IMG/VR virus record: IMGVR_UViG_646206259_000005
DNA length: 41,081 bases
From: a virus
Taxonomy: Duplodnaviria > Heunggongvirae > Uroviricota > Caudoviricetes
Direction: 5' to 3' (one strand)
Positions 1,398-9,300 of this stretch are shown here, piece by piece. How positions within the stretch are numbered: position 1 is the stretch's first letter; every line of letters starts with the position of its first letter. The position numbers were made by a program, and so were the translations under genes. Under the pieces are notes generated by a model. The model made no database searches. It was not told the DNA's origin and worked only from the letters and a program-made list of their open reading frames with translations.

Positions 1398-2195
1398 TTA
1401 TTGCGTGAGCTTCGCATGATAGCTGGAGCATCTCTTGTCATCACTAATTAGCTCCGCTTTATCCGTTCTTGCCCATATTATATTTCTTTTTATTATTTTT
1501 GCTGGATTACCGGCTGCTGCACACATAGATGGCACATCTTTAGTTACAATACTCCCATACCCAATGACAGATCCGCTTCCAACAGATACCCCTTTCATTA
1601 TAGAGACATTTCTCCCTACCCATACGTAACTAGATATAATGATATCTTTTGCCCAATTAATCCTTTTTTTGCTATGAATATCAAATATAGGATGCCCATC
1701 TGATGCACGCAAAATAACATCTCTTGCTATCATGCAGTCATGGCCAATTGTAACATTGCACTTATCAGTGACGACTTCAAAACCTGCACCTATTGTCGTT
1801 CTTCTACCGATAATAACTTTTGAACCTTTTGTTGCGACAATATCACCTTTAATCTTACTGTTTTTATGTATTCTTACGTAATTATTATCACCCCTAAATA
1901 TTACGGTAAGCCATCGACACTCAACATCATCTTCTATAATAAGTTTGTTATTGTTTCCATTGAACTGAACTTTATTCTCTTTGCTATTTACAAGATCTCC
2001 ACATACAAAAATATTACCTGATCCATTATCATCAACGGAAAACGAGTCTTGAGTCTTGAGTCTTGAGTCTTGAGTCTTGAGTCTTGAGTCTTGAGTCTTG
2101 AGTCTTGAGTCTTGAGTCTTGAGTCTTGAGTCTTGAGTCTTGAGTCTTGAGTCTTGAGTCTTGAGTCTTGAGTCTTGAGTCTTGAGTCTTGACAT
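1398..2195 (-). CDS. neuO: Hexapeptide-repeat O-acetyltransferase with N-terminal RLKTQDS heptad repeats (NeuO-like polysialic acid O-acetyltransferase)
   Basis: Translation MS(RLKTQDS)x7 then left-handed beta-helix acyltransferase-like body (IGxxxxIG-type repeats); AT-rich moron next to tailspike; architecture of CUS-3 neuO from established literature. Confidence 0.8.
   Translation of the reverse strand: MSRLKTQDSRLKTQDSRLKTQDSRLKTQDSRLKTQDSRLKTQDSRLKTQDSFSVDDNGSGNIFVCGDLVNSKENKVQFNGNNNKLIIEDDVECRWLTVIFRGDNNYVRIHKNSKIKGDIVATKGSKVIIGRRTTIGAGFEVVTDKCNVTIGHDCMIARDVILRASDGHPIFDIHSKKRINWAKDIIISSYVWVGRNVSIMKGVSVGSGSVIGYGSIVTKDVPSMCAAAGNPAKIIKRNIIWARTDKAELISDDKRCSSYHAKLTQ
2044..2190 (-). repeat. 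21 perfect tandem copies of heptanucleotide AAGACTC (coding strand) inside the 5' end of the O-acetyltransferase gene
   Basis: Counted directly: gagtctt x21 on + strand from 2044 to 2190, start codon complement at 2193-2195; 147 nt = 49 codons, in frame. Confidence 0.95.
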
Positions 2196-2348: not shown

Positions 2349-5297
2349 TTAGTGCTTCCCTTCTATTAAGTCTAACCTAGCTTTTATTCTTTCTATTTCT
2401 CTGCGCTGCCATGCCGCCTCGATATAGAATAAGAGATCAGGTCTGACCCCCCATCTAGATCCTGCTGGCGTTATTTCAACGCGCTCAATGATGTCTTCCA
2501 TTACCATCACTGGATTATCATCCTCATCAACAATGATGCTCCCGTCATTATCAGTCAGCGGCATTTCCCTTTGGCCAGTAATGACGTCATCATATACTGC
2601 GGGATAATCGTCATAGCAAAGAAACGCATAGCGGCATGTTGTGCTTTCTTCTTCCATGAGTCCGTGAGAAATAAGAACATCACGAAGTTGCTGCGCGATT
2701 ACACCATGATGTATCCTCGCCCCTTCTTCCCCCTTTATAGCGACAGCGTTCAGCCATTTATAAGCGATATACCTGACGTCACCCCAGGCATCCAGCAATG
2801 CTTCGTCAGGAGAGACCGGCTCTGTCTTTAATGTTCCGTCACTGGTAACCACAGGATTGGAGCCAAGATAAACTGTCGAGAACCTGTTTCCCGGACCACC
2901 AAGAGCATTTACATTATCAAGATAAGGTTTAACATCTCCGTTCTCAAAAAGATGTTCGAGTGCGTTATATACCGCGCGACGTGGAGTACTGCTTCCGGAA
3001 CCATGCAACGTTATCATTGCACCATCTGCTGAAGACGTTGTTTCACCGCCGCTAACGATTAATCTCTGAGCGGTAACATCATCAGACGGTACTTTCTTCG
3101 CAATAATGGCGTAATTACCCTCAAGTTTGACTTCCGCGCGAACTTGTCCTGATGTACCTGCATGGACAGTCAGTGACTGGACGGCAACATCATCTGTGAA
3201 ATCAACGGGTACAGGAACCGTCCTCACGCCTGACGTCGACATAAAAGTAGGAAGCGTTCTGTTAGGAGTGGCTCCGTAGACAAAATCCCTTGAAACAAAT
3301 TCTTCCTGTTTAATTTTCACCCTGAAACAATACAAATCAGCCGGGTGACCATCGTGAACATAAGGATATTTTCTGTTGTTATCCCCTATGCTCCATGGGT
3401 TTAGAAAGTCTTCCCCACCGAAAATGTAGTACAGCCAGTTGTCTTTGATACAAACTGAACCAACACCAACCGCAGAGTTAACTATTCCGCCCTGATAAAT
3501 CTGATCAGTAACATTAACCCACTCTACATTATCCAGACTCCACTCATTGACGTTAACTCTGGTCATAAATGTTCTTGGATAGTTTCCTGCATAACGGTTA
3601 TCAGGTTCTCCTCCTTCCCACTCACCAAATGCGCGCTCACTGCCAAAAATAATCAGCTCATCGCCAACTTTGGCAAAAGGAAGGTTTGAGTGATGAACAT
3701 TATTTGGGAAGCGAAGAGAATTCCATGATGTACCTAAATCAGAGCTTCTGTGCAATGAACTACCGGGTTGAGTACTTAATGTCCCCCTGGTCGTCAGATA
3801 CAGAATGCCATCATAATATTTTACACATGGCTCAGATGCATTCGCCTCATATTCTGCAGGTATGCGTCTGCGAACAAAGCTACCAGGAGAACCGAAAGCA
3901 TCAGAGAAATAGAGTATCCCAAGCTCGCGTGGACCAATATCACCATTATGGTAGCCAACAGCAAAACTGTTATCGCTAATCGTCGCAAAACTGTGAATCT
4001 CAGTAACAGGAGTGCTTCCGTCAACAAAAGAAGGAATAGTTCCAAGACTGGTTTTTCTCCATGGTGACGAGTGAAATGATGTACCAAAACTCCAGTATCT
4101 ACCCTCGTTATTCTGATCCACATCCTGGGTATTTTGCGTCGTAACTGTAAAAGTATTTTTATCAATAACAGTAGTCACCGTCATATTCCCGGTAACACCT
4201 GTAACACCAGAGTTTGAGAAGTTGACAAAATCACCAGCAAATAATCCGTGATCAGTAATGCGAATATAAGCGACTTGCTGATTTGCTGCTTTCGTTATAC
4301 CACCATAAGCGCGAAGGCTGCGACTCATTGGGCGATCCCACAACTCTGCAACCTGCAGTTTATTTCCGCTCACGGTCCGCGTCTCAATTACAGCAAAAAG
4401 GCGATTTCTGACAACCCCCATACTCATGCAGTGATAGTTAACTGTGGGATAGTTTTCATGTAAATCTGTAAGCCATTCCGGCGTTGTCCAGGTCCTCCCG
4501 TCATCTCCTGAGCGAACCCATGCAACATGGAGGTTATTTACACCATGGCGGTCTCCAGCCATAAAAGGCGCATAGATGACATTGTCATATACAAACGTTT
4601 TATCCTGCGTCCAGGCGTTGTACCACGGTGTATCTGTAATTTTAAATAACTCTCCCTGGATAAAATCTTCAGAAGCATAAAAAAGAGGCTGACCCGGTAT
4701 TCTCTCAAATAAAAAACGAGCATTTTTAAATCGACTGACATCTGGAAGAGTTGATACTTTAAAAGTAAGCCCTCGCCCATCTATCTTTTCACCACCTGTT
4801 GCAACAGAAAGTAATTCTGATAGAGCTGATGTATCATCATGAACACCATCACCAATAGCCCCCCAACCTCTTACATCATAACTGTCTCTCCATCTTGCTA
4901 TCTGAAGTTTTGGGTATTTATTCGCTCCATCTGGGTCTTCTAATTGCTGCCGTAACTGATCAGGATCATACTTCAGCACATTCGGAAAATAGAACTGCTG
5001 CACACCATATGCATCATAAACAGCCATAGAATGGCCCTGTACAGTAACGAATTTGGCAATCTGTCCGTTATATACCGGATATCCAGCAGCGTTAATGATG
5101 ATTGGTTGCGAAACAGGAACGTGAGAACCGTCTTCATTCTCCACATAAACCTGAATCTGGTTTTCAGGATTTACTGGGTCAGTGTCAATTTTACCGATAT
5201 AAATCTTTCCATTAGCTACGGCTTTAAAAGAACGAGCCATAGTGAAGAGTTGCGAAGGCATGCTTACCACAACATTGGCATTTATTGAATCTGTCAT
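2349..5297 (-). CDS. Tailspike: P22 gp9-like head-binding domain + sialidase/endosialidase-type catalytic domain + C-terminal intramolecular chaperone domain
   Basis: N-terminus [12 protein letters not shown]...[22 protein letters not shown] closely matches P22 tailspike N-terminus; Asp-box motifs SGDDGRTW and SSDLGTSW; C-terminal region typical of self-cleaving chaperone domains of endosialidases. Confidence 0.85.
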
Positions 5298-5397: not shown

Positions 5398-6327
5398 TCA
5401 GTAGTTATGTACTGAAGGAGGTAATTCTTTATTCTTAAGTCTCATCCATGCGGAAAGATTCGTTGGTCCGTCTGGCTCATTGATATCAACATCTCGTGTG
5501 TGGTTTATTAAAACGTCTCTTGCCATTCCGATAACATACGAGAACTCATGGCCATAGTCGTAGCATCTGCCGGAATAGTTCGATTGAATTTGTTTTAGCG
5601 CCGGATACAGTTCGCGGAATAATGCCTGTGCGCGGTTGGCATAATCCCATAACCATACAAGGCTGTTTGCTTCTTTTGCAGAAAGCTCGTTTGCTTTCTT
5701 CTCTTGTTTGCCGATTAACTCGCCTTCAAGCGGAACGCGAGCTGCAAGTGACAGAGCTTCGGTAAACTGCTCATCGCTGATTTCTTTGTATGAACATCCA
5801 AAATGGGATTTCAGTGACGACCACATGGTGATCATCGCCTTAGCCTGTTTTTCCTTTGGCAGAGACTGACCGCGACTCATGACGAGTTGTTTAATGGCTT
5901 CCTGCTGTTCAGTGGTGATTTTACCCGGCAACGCCTTTTTAGCTTTGCGTGGGTTAACTACATGGCCTTTAGTCCAGTATTCGTAGAGCACATCGTCACA
6001 CTCTTCCTGATACTGGATTACCTTGTCGCGGATTTCAGGGCGGACTTTGTTAGGGCTAATGGTTTGCAGCCAACCTGCAAGTTTGCGAAGTGCCAAACAA
6101 ATAATCTCACGGCGCTGTTCATCACTAGGAAGCTGCATTGTGATTTTCACAATGGAGGTTTTAAACCGCTGCTTCATTTTCGTAAACTGTGAAGCCCAAT
6201 CCATACCCATGCCTTCAACGATAGGTTTCATTGGGGTATACGGTTCGCCGTTGTGATTGACAACATAAAGCTCTGCGCCGTGGAATGGTACATTGATAGT
6301 AGATACTGCTGTTGCTATACTTTTCAT
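5398..6327 (-). CDS. ant: Antirepressor Ant (immI region)
   Basis: 309 aa, position immediately downstream of arc and divergent from mnt as in P22 immI; N-terminal AntA/BRO-like character. Confidence 0.75.
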   Translation of the reverse strand: MKSIATAVSTINVPFHGAELYVVNHNGEPYTPMKPIVEGMGMDWASQFTKMKQRFKTSIVKITMQLPSDEQRREIICLALRKLAGWLQTISPNKVRPEIRDKVIQYQEECDDVLYEYWTKGHVVNPRKAKKALPGKITTEQQEAIKQLVMSRGQSLPKEKQAKAMITMWSSLKSHFGCSYKEISDEQFTEALSLAARVPLEGELIGKQEKKANELSAKEANSLVWLWDYANRAQALFRELYPALKQIQSNYSGRCYDYGHEFSYVIGMARDVLINHTRDVDINEPDGPTNLSAWMRLKNKELPPSVHNY

Positions 6328-6560
6328 GTCGTTAATTCCTATGCGTGGTTTTACGATACCGAAGCCCTGACTGTTCCCGCAGTTGGGGCTTCACTGTTTT
6401 GATTTCTTTGCCGCATCAAGCATCACTTCTGAAAACGTGCGCTTGCCACTGAATACTCTTTCTCTTCTCAATTTTTCGTTCGTGCCAAATGATTCGCCAT
6501 GAACAAAATTTGGTCTTAAAATGGTAATCGCAATCTCTTTGACTACTGCATCCAAGCGAA

Positions 6561-6713
6561 TCACACCGTTACCCCCTCTCTCTTCAGGCTGTCTATCAGG
6601 CGCTTGATAACCTCTGAGTTAAACGACCTGCACTCTTCCTTTGCCCTGCTACCGATAGCATCCTTTAACGACTGCGGCATCCTTACCAAAATCTTACTTA
6701 TTTCTTTCTCCAT
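6561..6713 (-). CDS. arc: Arc-like ribbon-helix-helix repressor (start at internal Met MEKEI with GGAGGG RBS)
   Basis: Motif RSFNSEVIKRL resembles P22 Arc RSVNSEIYQRV; sits between ant and divergent mnt. Confidence 0.7.
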   Translation of the reverse strand: MEKEISKILVRMPQSLKDAIGSRAKEECRSFNSEVIKRLIDSLKREGVTV

Positions 6714-6827
6714 GTTACCCTCCACACAAACAACTCTTTTCGAATACAAAAGATAGCAAAGTGAGTATATCTAGTCAAAATTTTTTTGCATACACTTTGA
6801 TATCAAATTGAATACCAAAGGTGTGAT
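6714..6827. promoter_or_regulatory. Divergent immI promoter/operator region between arc and mnt
   Basis: 114-bp AT-rich intergenic region between divergent RHH repressor genes; by analogy with P22 Pant/Pmnt. Confidence 0.5.
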
Positions 6828-7076
6828 ATGGCAAAGGGTGTGTCAATTTCTCCAACTACGGTAAGAATCCCTGAATCTTTACGCGAGGCTCTTGCTGTCA
6901 GAGCATCAAAAAATGGTCGCTCTGTTAACTCCGAGATCGTCATGATTTTGCAAGCCGCGATTGATGAAGATAGGTCGCCAAAGTCAGTTGAGTCATTTGC
7001 TCAGCAAGAAGCTGACAAATTCAAAGAGGCGCTGCTTGAGACGCTAAAGACCATGTATGGTAAGGATGAAAAATAA
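6828..7076 (+). CDS. mnt: Mnt-like ribbon-helix-helix repressor
   Basis: 82 aa; motif NGRSVNSEIVMILQAAI resembles P22 Mnt NGRSMNSELLQIVQDAL; divergent from arc-ant. Confidence 0.8.
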   Translation: MAKGVSISPTTVRIPESLREALAVRASKNGRSVNSEIVMILQAAIDEDRSPKSVESFAQQEADKFKEALLETLKTMYGKDEK

Positions 7077-7612
7077 TGCTGCACACAATTCATTTCTTAT
7101 GCCCCGTTAACACTGCCACTGTTGGGCAACTTCAGAACCACTGTCTCACCGCATTATCTCAAGGCGCAACTGAATTAAATATCCATATATCAAGTCAGGG
7201 AGGGGAAACTGCCGCTGGCTTTACTGCGTATAACTTTCTTAAGTCACTCCCTGTTACCGTTAGAACTCACAACATAAGCAATGTTGAATCCATAGCTAAT
7301 ATCGTTTTCCTGGCTGGCTCAGAACGTTTCGCAAACCCATTATCAAGATTCCTGTTACATCCTCTATTATGGGGCTTTGCCTCCCCAGCCGCCGACCATG
7401 CCAGATTGAGAGAGTACGGGAAATGCCTCGATAACGATCTTGATCGCTTCGTTGAGACGTTCAATATCGACATCGGAACCCATATTAGGTGGGCATCCCT
7501 GATAGCAGACTCGACCATTTTGGATGCTAACAAGGCTCTTGAGCATGGCATAATTAATTCCATAAAAACTGCAAGGCTGGCATCCAATCAGGCAAACTGG
7601 TGGGTTGTTTGA
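7076..7612 (+). CDS. ClpP-family (S14-like) serine peptidase homolog, translationally coupled to mnt
   Basis: By-eye alignment to E. coli ClpP: ISSQGGETAAG...VESIANIVFLAG...FANPLSRFLLHPL parallels INSPGGVITAG...AASMGAFLLTAG...LPNSRVMIHQPL with candidate Ser/His conserved; start ATG overlaps mnt stop (TAATG). Confidence 0.6.
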   Translation: MLHTIHFLCPVNTATVGQLQNHCLTALSQGATELNIHISSQGGETAAGFTAYNFLKSLPVTVRTHNISNVESIANIVFLAGSERFANPLSRFLLHPLLWGFASPAADHARLREYGKCLDNDLDRFVETFNIDIGTHIRWASLIADSTILDANKALEHGIINSIKTARLASNQANWWVV

Positions 7613-7637
7613 TGGGTAAATCATGATTACTCCTTAT

Positions 7638-7664
7638 AAAAAACCCACCTGACGGTGGGTTTTA
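7638..7664. terminator. Bidirectional rho-independent terminator between convergent genes
   Basis: Hairpin ACCCACC-tgac-GGTGGGT flanked by A6 upstream and T4 downstream. Confidence 0.55.
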
Positions 7665-8087
7665 TTAGTGCTTGTATAGCTTGAACTCCCTGTCGAGCCA
7701 TAAGACATAAAAAGTGGCTCCTATCTTATAACCAACCATAGGTGCCTTAGAGCAAAATCTGAACGCAATGAAATCCACATCTTGAGTAACATGCTTAGGA
7801 ATCGGAGCCTTTATCGCGTTTCTGGCAATTTTTTCCGTCCCAAGCCCGTGTTTATCAGATTTTCGTATCTCATCCCATGACATCTGACTTAACCTGAACA
7901 GCCTATCTGCAAATGCTGCCTTTTCATGCTTTTGGCAGCAATCTAGGCAATACCCCTTTTGTAGGTATCTAAGAGAAAATACAGGCGGACTTTTGTCTAC
8001 ATCATGAGATTCGTGATGGATAGAGAGGCCAACAGTAGCAGAGCTCTCTTTATCCCTCTGTTTTATTCTTCCCTTAACTCTAGACAT
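7665..8087 (-). CDS. Hypothetical 140-aa protein, downstream partner of Panacea-domain gene (candidate toxin/effector)
   Basis: ORF 5 bp downstream of the DUF4065 gene on same strand; contains CLDCC cysteine cluster; no family confidently recognised. Confidence 0.5.
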   Translation of the reverse strand: MSRVKGRIKQRDKESSATVGLSIHHESHDVDKSPPVFSLRYLQKGYCLDCCQKHEKAAFADRLFRLSQMSWDEIRKSDKHGLGTEKIARNAIKAPIPKHVTQDVDFIAFRFCSKAPMVGYKIGATFYVLWLDREFKLYKH

Positions 8088-8092
8088 ACACG

Positions 8093-8542
8093 TCAGTTAA
8101 TTAACGTTTTGAAAAAACCTTTCATAGAATCAAGTGTGATTTCTTGGCTAACCGCACCCTCAATGTAAGCATCTTTCCATGGCTGCTCTTCGTGAGTCAT
8201 ATTGCGCAGTTTCCAGGCAGAAAACTGACCATAAACTTTATACACCTCATCCAGCAATTCAATTTCATCTTCACTGAATTTTTTAGCGTCAAAGTTTTCT
8301 GGCGCAGGTAAAGCTCCGTTACCACAGTCCCTATATTTACGATACAATTCAGGAACTACTGGCCCATGCATCCAGGCTTCAATTTTCTCATTAAATAGCG
8401 GCTTACCCAGAAGAACCAGAGAAAACCCTTGGGCATAATACGTCAACTTCTGAATTTTTAGGTTAGAGATAATGTCGCCACTTTCTTCATCGCAATGCGC
8501 CAAGAAGTAGTCGGCGACATCAAAACAAGTGAGCATAAACAT
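8093..8542 (-). CDS. Panacea (DUF4065, GepA/SocA-like) domain protein
   Basis: N-terminal pattern DVADYFL...GDIISNLKIQKLTYYAQGFSLVLLGKPLFNEKIEAWMHGPVVPELYRKYRDCG matches my recollection of the DUF4065 phage-associated protein family. Confidence 0.65.
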   Translation of the reverse strand: MFMLTCFDVADYFLAHCDEESGDIISNLKIQKLTYYAQGFSLVLLGKPLFNEKIEAWMHGPVVPELYRKYRDCGNGALPAPENFDAKKFSEDEIELLDEVYKVYGQFSAWKLRNMTHEEQPWKDAYIEGAVSQEITLDSMKGFFKTLIN

Positions 8543-8910: not shown

Positions 8911-9300
8911 GTGAGGCAATTTCTTGCTGCTATGTTCTTATTCATATCTTTTGGGGCTACAGCAGAGTGCTGGGTAGTTGGAGATATGCGCGGAATAAGC
9001 TATTCAGAACGAAATAATTTCCAACCAGAAGAAGATGGTTTTAGTGGAACATTCATCATTAAGACAAGCGGTGAAGATGCCAGCATCACATATTCTGGGG
9101 CAGATGCGGGCGGCATGGCTTACAAAGCATTGTCTAAAAACTCCATCATAGGAATCGGCGCAAATGGCGAAACTCAACGCGTTATCGACTCATGGGTAAT
9201 ACATCCTACTGGAACAGTTTTAATGTCAAAAACCATTTCCGGTTATGGAAATATGGATTCAACCAAAGCTTTTGTTGGAAAAGTAAAAAGAAAATGTTAA
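8911..9300 (+). CDS. Secreted/periplasmic hypothetical protein (signal peptide), GTG start
   Basis: N-terminus MRQFLAAMFLFISFGATA-EC typical Sec signal peptide; RBS AAGGAGG 6 nt upstream of GTG. Confidence 0.6.
   Translation: MRQFLAAMFLFISFGATAECWVVGDMRGISYSERNNFQPEEDGFSGTFIIKTSGEDASITYSGADAGGMAYKALSKNSIIGIGANGETQRVIDSWVIHPTGTVLMSKTISGYGNMDSTKAFVGKVKRKC

Follow-up and report, generated by a model that had tools for sequence, protein, structure and literature searches.

The clpP-like gene and its place in the immI region

We analysed a 41,081-nucleotide stretch of DNA from a tailed phage (IMG/VR record IMGVR_UViG_646206259_000005), the whole of which is called the window here, and in it a gene at positions 7076-7612 of the plus strand that resembles clpP. 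An earlier note, made from the sequence alone, had read this gene as a homologue of the serine peptidase ClpP, translationally coupled to the lysogeny repressor gene mnt. The open reading frame (ORF) list of the window gives it a product of 178 amino acids, which is a shortened and apparently active copy of the bacterial ClpP subunit. The window is a P22-like E. coli prophage with a P22 coat, a 297-amino-acid scaffold-sized ORF, a P22 portal, gp7, a gp20-type translocase and a 609-amino-acid protein at the gp16 position. Over 86% of its first 25 kb it aligns with Lederbergvirus phiv205-1 at 97.7% identity, and over 75% of them with CUS-3 at 96.7%. The clpP-like gene lies in the immI module, where an mnt-type gene for a ribbon-helix-helix (RHH) protein stands divergently to arc and ant. 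The features of the locus, with the evidence for each in brackets, are as follows.

7076-7612, plus strand: clpP-like gene, an N-terminally truncated S14 peptidase subunit of 178 amino acids (profile, structure, alignment and dN/dS evidence)
7289-7291, plus strand: codon TCC of Ser72, the predicted nucleophile (opposite Ser97 of E. coli ClpP on alignment; unchanged in all 26 family sequences)
7358-7360, plus strand: codon CAT of His95, the predicted general base (aligned with E. coli ClpP His122; invariant in 26 of 26)
7062-7066, plus strand: Shine-Dalgarno sequence AAGGA of the clpP-like gene, within the final mnt codons and 9 nt 5′ of the ATG (read from the sequence)
6828-7076, plus strand: mnt-type repressor gene of 82 codons for amino acids, with an RHH domain and a C-terminal helical tail (Pfam Arc, 1MNT match)
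7640-7663, unstranded: intrinsic terminator hairpin for both directions, AACCCACC-TGAC-GGTGGGTT, flanked by an A-run on the left and a T-run on the right (RNA folding)
7064-7663, plus strand: minimal mosaic cassette, made of the last mnt codons with the Shine-Dalgarno sequence, the clpP-like gene and the terminator (identity to nine loci, compared pairwise in bins)
6784-6819, unstranded: 36-bp imperfect palindrome with core TTTGATATCAAA, a candidate operator or Pmnt region (repeat search)
6750-6778, minus strand: Pant-like sigma-70 promoter match TTGACT-17-TATCTT, directed towards arc-ant (consensus scan)
6561-6749, minus strand: arc, an Arc-type RHH repressor gene (Pfam Arc E=9.6e-12; named Arc in phiv205-1)
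5398-6327, minus strand: ant, the antirepressor gene of the immI module (Pfam P22_AR_N E=4.3e-45 and P22_AR_C E=9.4e-29; PHROG 245, anti-repressor Ant)

The gene upstream of the clpP-like gene is of the Mnt type, as had been proposed, and its product is a predicted operator-binding repressor. Its 82-residue product, which compares with 83 residues for P22 Mnt, matches the Pfam Arc/RHH family at E=9.6e-11, and its top match in the PDB is the P22 Mnt repressor itself (1MNT, E=2.3e-6, residues 12-73). Also, the gene is transcribed divergently from arc and ant, both of which lie on the minus strand. The start of arc is TTG 6749 in the ORF list, and the ATG at 6713 is the likelier one. Just 5′ of the mnt ribosome-binding site we found the palindrome at 6784-6819, whose ungapped 18-nt arms are complementary at 78% of positions and meet at a centre of TTTGAT and ATCAAA. 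It is position alone that speaks for the Pant-like match at 6750-6778, the count of such sites in the region being no higher than in shuffled sequences.

The ATG of the clpP-like gene (7076-7078) and the TAA of mnt (7074-7076) have base 7076 in common, and the overlap seen earlier is thus of a single base. Downstream, 28 nt past the stop codon of the clpP-like gene, lies the G+C-rich hairpin, with a folding energy of -18.5 kcal/mol (z -3.2) on the plus strand and -19.7 kcal/mol (z -4.6) on the minus strand. As it is stable on both strands, it looks like a bidirectional terminator common to mnt-clpP and to the convergent toxin-antitoxin genes on the other side. It may be noted that a simple terminator scan missed this hairpin and that folding confirmed it. 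With a start that overlaps the mnt stop, a Shine-Dalgarno sequence internal to mnt and one terminator for both genes, co-transcription and coupled translation of mnt and the clpP-like gene are the simplest reading.

ClpP fold, catalytic residues and likeness to PpClpP1

The Pfam profile CLP_protease (PF00574, family S14) matches residues 24-165 of the product at E=4.8e-12, with 46.6 bits against a gathering cut-off of 20.2. Both the family and the exact coordinates of the earlier reading stand. A sequence search of the PDB returned 9UXT at E=2.8e-35 over residues 3-175, followed by dozens of canonical ClpPs at 1e-8 to 1e-5, and BLASTP against E. coli ClpP (a query sequence verified to be identical to PDB 3MT6) gave 27% identity at E=5e-11. 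The AlphaFold2 monomer model (predicted local distance difference test score, pLDDT, 90.8; predicted template-modelling score, pTM, 0.87) has the ClpP alpha/beta fold with its handle helix. By Foldseek it superposes on 9UXT with a template-modelling (TM) score of 0.91 and a root-mean-square deviation of 2.0 Å, and on E. coli ClpP with a TM score of 0.74, at a probability of 1.00. PDB 4RYF and 4U0G are also among the structural matches of the model. Taken together, the Pfam, PDB, BLASTP and model matches put the resemblance to ClpP far beyond chance.

On alignment, Ser72 (in VESIA) falls opposite Ser97 of E. coli ClpP and His95 (in LLHPL) opposite His122, and these are the two residues that had been picked out by eye as catalytic candidates. 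Both are invariant in the family alignment (26 sequences, 31-80% identity), as are S39, S40, G42 and G43 of the SSxGG oxyanion-loop motif. Of the catalytic triad, the serine and the histidine are in place and the acid is not. The position of E. coli Asp171 is taken by Ser146, and positions 145 and 146 vary across the family (D/N/Q/K/S/A/T and others) with no conserved acid.

The protein is also short at its N-terminus. Its Met1 aligns near residue 38-40 of the E. coli ClpP precursor, and hence the protein has no propeptide, no gating axial loops and no helix A. Ten positions make up what we take to be the pocket of E. coli ClpP for the IGF/IGL loop of the unfoldase (L48, F49, Y60, Y62, F82, I90, M92, F112, L114 and L189). 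At these the clpP-like protein has T, A, N, H, S, H, I, F, N and K, and with a hydrophobic residue retained in only 2 of the 10 cases (I67 and F85) the pocket that docks ClpX or ClpA is lost. The NCBIfam equivalog models for ClpP all score far under their cut-offs (22-41 bits against 249-309; for instance 22.1 against 308.6 for TIGR00493 and 34 against 249 for PRK00277). With neither axial loops nor a ClpX/ClpA pocket, a role as a stand-alone ATP-dependent Clp protease is unlikely. The comparison with E. coli ClpP thus leaves a common fold (TM 0.74), equivalents of Ser97 and His122, an SxGG oxyanion motif and a handle region of normal length, whereas about 38 N-terminal residues of the precursor, the equivalents of Asp171 and Arg170 and the hydrophobic character of the IGF-loop pocket are missing, at 27% identity and below the NCBIfam ClpP cut-offs.

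The nearest characterised relative is ClpP1 of Pseudomonas plecoglossicida (PpClpP1, PDB 9UXT), which is the best PDB match by a wide margin and is 38-40% identical to the clpP-like protein. PpClpP1 is truncated by more than 15 residues at its N-terminus and has a Ser-His-Pro "triad", of which it needs Ser and His but can do without the third residue (PMC12900304). On its own it forms a homotetradecamer with an axial pore of 42.7 Å, has a peptidase activity about 13-fold below that of its canonical paralogue and does not bind ClpX. Mixed with canonical ClpP, it forms a stable heterotetradecamer in which ClpX is bound via the canonical ring and substrates are degraded faster (PMC12900304). By alignment, the clpP-like protein has every sequence-level feature of this type: a similar size (178 amino acids against 183) with similarity over the full length, no N-terminal axial loops and helix, no ClpX-docking elements, and a catalytic Ser and His with a non-acidic third position. 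That third position is Ser146 (with Asp145 adjacent) in the phage protein and Pro151 in PpClpP1. Also, the phage gene is prophage-borne and joined to mnt, whereas the Pseudomonas homologues (about 40% identity) are found outside prophages, in a conserved chromosomal neighbourhood of transporter and metabolic genes.

Other bacteria have a second, atypical ClpP that functions only in hetero-oligomers, needs a canonical partner ring to engage the unfoldase and modulates the output of ClpXP, among them P. aeruginosa ClpP2, Listeria ClpP1 and mycobacterial ClpP1P2, and by analogy the phage protein may belong with them. For P. aeruginosa ClpP2, modulation of ClpXP takes place via hetero-oligomers (PMC13056064). 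Those paralogues are encoded on host chromosomes, whereas the phage protein comes from a temperate phage and is more severely truncated. The protein is a new case of the recently described truncated ClpPs of the PpClpP1 type, and its novelty is the mobile prophage cassette joined to mnt.

A mobile cassette, its linkage to mnt and its spread

A set of 134 homologous loci (54 genome contigs and 80 viral contigs) was retrieved from public collections and used to compare the surroundings of the gene. The TAATG joint with an Mnt-type ORF was found in all of the approximately 45 scorable copies of at least 80% identity, and in this close, mnt-linked clade ant always lies a few hundred bp upstream. 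The N-terminal DNA-binding halves of the Mnt proteins encoded before the joint are of at least six unrelated types, one of them a genuine P22-type Mnt (MARDDPHFNFRMPMEVREKL...), and the final residues (...ETLKTMYGKDEK) are common to these alleles. Binned comparison with nine loci showed 96-100% DNA identity from about 7000-7064, depending on the locus, to about 7634-7665, as against 20-50% in the flanks. In some loci the identity begins earlier, near 6995, and the match to PhiR12_1 covers 6995-7659. From these sharp edges, the unit that moves is the one made of the last mnt codons with the Shine-Dalgarno sequence, the clpP-like gene and the terminator.

A larger block can move as well. In the PhiR12 phages and in about ten IMG/VR prophages we found ant, arc, mnt and the clpP-like gene together within a lambdoid tail operon, between genes L and K, with ant and arc co-directional with the tail genes and mnt-clpP opposite to them. 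The coordinates are as follows.

2606-4618 of PhiR12_1 (PV340549.1, locus L002), unstranded: ant-arc-mnt-clpP-like block in the tail operon (also in the retrieved loci L068, L075, L077, L079, L081, L084, L085, L089, L092 and L095)

This placement shows transfer of the immI module, ClpP-like passenger included, between podovirus and siphovirus genomes.

The slot itself is one of variable content. In P22 we take the gene order to be mnt-orf59a-sieA, with the genes co-oriented. There orf59a and sieA are contiguous with mnt in the same slot, and SieA is an inner-membrane exclusion protein that targets the ejection proteins gp16 and gp20 (PMC10883804). The likeness lies in the slot between mnt and the ejection-protein gene 16, which in P22-like phages is home to lysogen-expressed exclusion genes (PMC10883804); SieA itself is unrelated to ClpP. 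CUS-3 holds other genes in the mnt-side slot. To the right of the terminator the cargo varies too, being a Panacea-type toxin-antitoxin pair here and YafO or other genes elsewhere. In the hypervariable stretch at 7613-7900 of the window, and its equivalent in loci L057-L103, the first downstream ORF is of 73, 85, 139-149, 232-236 or 322-330 amino acids, and RefSeq records a YafO-family toxin at this side of the terminator in several genomes of sequence type 95 (ST95). The pair in the window (7665-8542, minus strand) is convergent to mnt-clpP and uses the bidirectional terminator jointly with it. One of its genes encodes a 149-amino-acid antitoxin with a SocA/Panacea domain (Pfam E=2.2e-24), and the other a 140-amino-acid protein of PHROG 8366 with weak similarity to MAG6450 and to NsnC of PADLOC.

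The linkage to mnt that had been noted holds for the close subclade and does not extend to the rest of the family. Copies at 52-75% identity have no RHH neighbour and no mnt, arc or ant alongside, and in nearly every locus they are a lone plus-strand gene between minus-strand phage genes. They are found between the Rz/LysC lysis genes and terminase in prophages of Klebsiella, E. coli and Leclercia, between N and the erf/ssb early-left genes in a Proteus prophage, and between tail-fibre and lysis genes in a Chromobacterium prophage. Such solitary antisense placement is the classic arrangement of an independently expressed moron. We also looked for a conserved partner gene in these contexts without mnt, and none was consistent, the neighbours being unrelated to one another. 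An E. coli homologue of 186 amino acids (about 53% identity; 2219-2767 of L137, also L126-L133) is preceded, 78 nt upstream and on the same strand, by a gene for a 182-amino-acid protein of PHROG 5483 that has no Pfam or PADLOC match, and the two may form a second kind of two-gene unit. In the Proteus prophage (L141, 8421-10051) a pair of genes for a Peptidase_M78 protein (RmrA-like in PADLOC) and a DUF4411 protein lies close to the ClpP-like gene, in the interval from the repressor gene to N.

A word-indexed search gave 68 clusters, nearly all of 178-202 amino acids and from Enterobacterales and Chromobacterium, and an exhaustive search of 1.84 billion representatives gave 8 clusters at E<=1e-30 and 539 at E<=1e-10. 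By these sequence searches the family is a small distinct branch within a cloud of short ClpP-like proteins. The ratio of non-synonymous to synonymous substitution rates (dN/dS) is 0.08 against the 80%-identical copy (dN 0.13, dS 1.6) and 0.08-0.20 in other unsaturated comparisons; dS is saturated in most comparisons, and usable values come from the 80%-identity pair and a few others. Such low values indicate strong purifying selection on the gene. Among 5,426 complete E. coli genomes, 128 carry it, all at 99% nucleotide identity or more, in 1-3 copies each and in no case on a plasmid. In RefSeq its product is named "ATP-dependent Clp protease proteolytic subunit" and stands beside an "Arc family DNA-binding protein". 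Only 6 of 50,697 phage records contain the gene, mostly as "hypothetical protein" and in phiv205-1 as "head maturation protease".

Proposed role in lysogens and competing explanations

By analogy with PpClpP1, the protein would be an accessory ClpP subunit, carried as prophage cargo (a moron) and expressed in lysogens, and to this we give about an even chance of being right. P22 Mnt is expressed in lysogens as the repressor of Pant, and given the probable coupling of mnt to the clpP-like gene a small amount of the protein is expected in lysogens. That other family members stand alone and antisense also points to expression in lysogens. In such a scheme the clpP-like gene, seated in the slot that P22 appears to use for orf59a-sieA, would be co-transcribed and translationally coupled with mnt from Pmnt to yield a low-level product. 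The protein would assemble into heptameric rings with a wide ungated pore which, if they behave like those of PpClpP1, could not recruit ClpX or ClpA themselves. A ring of this kind might stack on a heptamer of host ClpP to form a hybrid tetradecamer, in which the host ring would dock the unfoldase and both chambers would cleave. The hybrid may then alter the rate or the product spectrum of ClpXP/ClpAP proteolysis in the lysogen. The most plausible benefits to the prophage would be interference with superinfecting phages or a stabilised lysogeny, and an effect on host fitness is also possible. The idea of mixed complexes, already raised in the earlier note, has a direct biochemical precedent in PpClpP1 (PMC12900304).

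Host protein degradation is probably altered by the clpP-like protein in lysogens. A wider claim is decidedly tentative, namely that a gate-less ClpP ring may be mobile cargo of enterobacterial temperate phages that caps host ClpP and reprograms ClpXP/ClpAP for superinfection exclusion or as a safeguard of lysogeny. In E. coli, many regulators are under the control of ClpXP and ClpAP, and so are phage proteins, lambda O among them. A prophage-supplied ClpP ring could retune this proteolysis in some 2% of the E. coli genomes sequenced, a group with many ST95 or K1-type pathogens. For the PpClpP1 family, whose structure was solved recently, the prophage offers a natural biological setting in which function can be studied genetically. 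If the proposal is true, the "ClpP1" encoded on the chromosome of some Pseudomonas species would be of the same lineage, one largely associated with phages. According to a review, an avian pathogenic strain forms less biofilm and adheres less well once it has lost phiv205-1 (PMC10052878), and nothing ties this phenotype to the clpP-like gene.

Several points weigh against an accessory subunit made in lysogens. The Arg-Asp oligomerisation sensor of canonical ClpP is not kept, the residues here being D145-S146, and its loss could weaken ring stacking. The biology of PpClpP1 may not transfer, as the identity is only 38-40% and the Pseudomonas context is chromosomal and non-phage. In the promoter and terminator scan, sites were not more numerous than in shuffled sequences, and the promoter evidence is thus at chance level. 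The clpP-like protein had no match at E<=0.1 to any PADLOC 2.0 family, and known defence partners are missing beside the homologues. Among the neighbours in the window and in the homologous loci PADLOC returned only the NsnC-like toxin of a toxin-antitoxin pair and the RmrA/M78 protein, both of them unrelated neighbours. A literature search on phage- or prophage-encoded ClpP, on mnt with ClpP and on the carrier phages found nothing on the clpP-like gene.

The main alternative, which we consider possible but unlikely, is a free-standing, gate-less homo-oligomeric peptidase that has no host Clp partner and degrades unfolded polypeptides entering its wide pore, for example the ejection proteins of incoming phages or nascent or unstructured regulators. 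The missing gating loops and helix A would suit it, as would the measurable peptidase activity of the PpClpP1 tetradecamer alone with its 42.7 Å pore (PMC12900304), and the gene stands in the slot of P22 sieA, whose product acts on gp16/gp20 (PMC10883804). Yet PpClpP1 alone falls some 13-fold short of the canonical enzyme and becomes more active only as part of the hybrid, an ungated active protease is expected to be toxic, and the substrates are hypothetical.

Still less probable is a safeguard of the immI switch, whereby the protein, made together with Mnt, would remove leaky Ant or tune the levels of Arc and Mnt and so stabilise lysogeny post-translationally. The gene is obligately linked to mnt in the close clade, where ant is never far away, and the entire ant-arc-mnt-clpP unit has been relocated into the lambdoid tail operon, as one would expect of such a safeguard. 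But mnt, arc and ant are all missing beside the members at 52-75% identity, the cassette edge at the very end of mnt means that the gene is swapped independently of the operator-recognition half of mnt, and a ClpP without an unfoldase cannot select folded substrates.

Two further explanations are very improbable. In the first, the two genes would work like a toxin-antitoxin pair, with the protease as the toxin and the RHH protein as its neutraliser or repressor. A small RHH gene that overlaps a downstream enzyme gene, a weak FitA-like RHH match (E=2.1e-8) and the toxin-antitoxin systems in the adjacent cargo (Panacea here, YafO elsewhere) recall such pairs, but the RHH protein is Mnt by its best PDB match, its size and its position divergent from arc-ant. 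Also, many homologues have no RHH partner, and the cassette is exchanged without the DNA-binding half of the RHH protein. In the second, the product would be an ordinary ATP-dependent ClpP subunit that docks ClpX or ClpA directly, in keeping with its RefSeq name and with the Pfam match above threshold. Against this stand the NCBIfam equivalog scores, the absent axial loops, the non-hydrophobic residues at 8 of the 10 positions of the docking pocket and the failure of PpClpP1 to bind ClpX. The database label "ATP-dependent Clp protease proteolytic subunit" therefore needs correction.

A head maturation (prohead) protease, as which the identical gene of phiv205-1 (MN340231.1, 10718-11254; L001, 4577-5113) is annotated in GenBank, is effectively refuted, in line with the earlier note. 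The label has behind it a match to PHROG 94 "head maturation protease" at E=1.5e-21, the best of the phage-family matches and one that scores above the Pfam match. P22-type heads, however, mature without proteolysis, and the window has the P22 coat, scaffold-sized ORF and portal, with no protease gene in the portal-coat interval. The clpP-like gene stands antisense to the late operon, in immI, and the NCBIfam head-maturation model NF045542 reaches 49.6 bits against a cut-off of 120. In a Leclercia prophage, moreover, the 75%-identical copy coexists with a separate 284-amino-acid ClpP-type prohead protease between portal and capsid, to which the clpP-like protein is only marginally similar (BLASTP E=0.003). 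The ClpP-related head maturation proteases (NF045542, PHROG 94) are alike in having an S14-type domain without ClpX-docking features, whereas the clpP-like protein has no C-terminal extension and its gene is outside the head cluster. The phiv205-1 label is almost certainly a mislabel carried over from a Streptococcus phage match, and it is the second of the two database labels corrected here.

An origin by exaptation of a prohead protease was also considered and is not supported, as E. coli ClpP is matched far better by BLASTP (E=5e-11) than is the co-resident prohead protease (E=0.003). With outgroup proteins, the ClpP and the head-maturation models give roughly equal scores.

Other observations concern the surroundings of the locus. 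Between arc and ant lies a 57-amino-acid ORF (6391-6564, minus strand) whose start overlaps the arc stop and which is a hypothetical protein in phiv205-1 too; it has no family assignment. A 129-amino-acid ORF with a GTG start (8911-9300, plus strand; PHROG 2651) has a hydrophobic, signal-peptide-like N-terminus and sits between the toxin-antitoxin pair and the gp16-position gene. A 982-amino-acid ORF (2349-5297, minus strand) is at the position of the CUS-3 endosialidase tailspike. Finally, 21.3 perfect copies of GAGTCTT (2044-2192) stand at the 5′ end of a gene for a hexapeptide-repeat acetyltransferase (ORF 1398-2195, minus strand), and this repeat matches the phase-variable neuO poly-psi repeat annotated in CUS-3.

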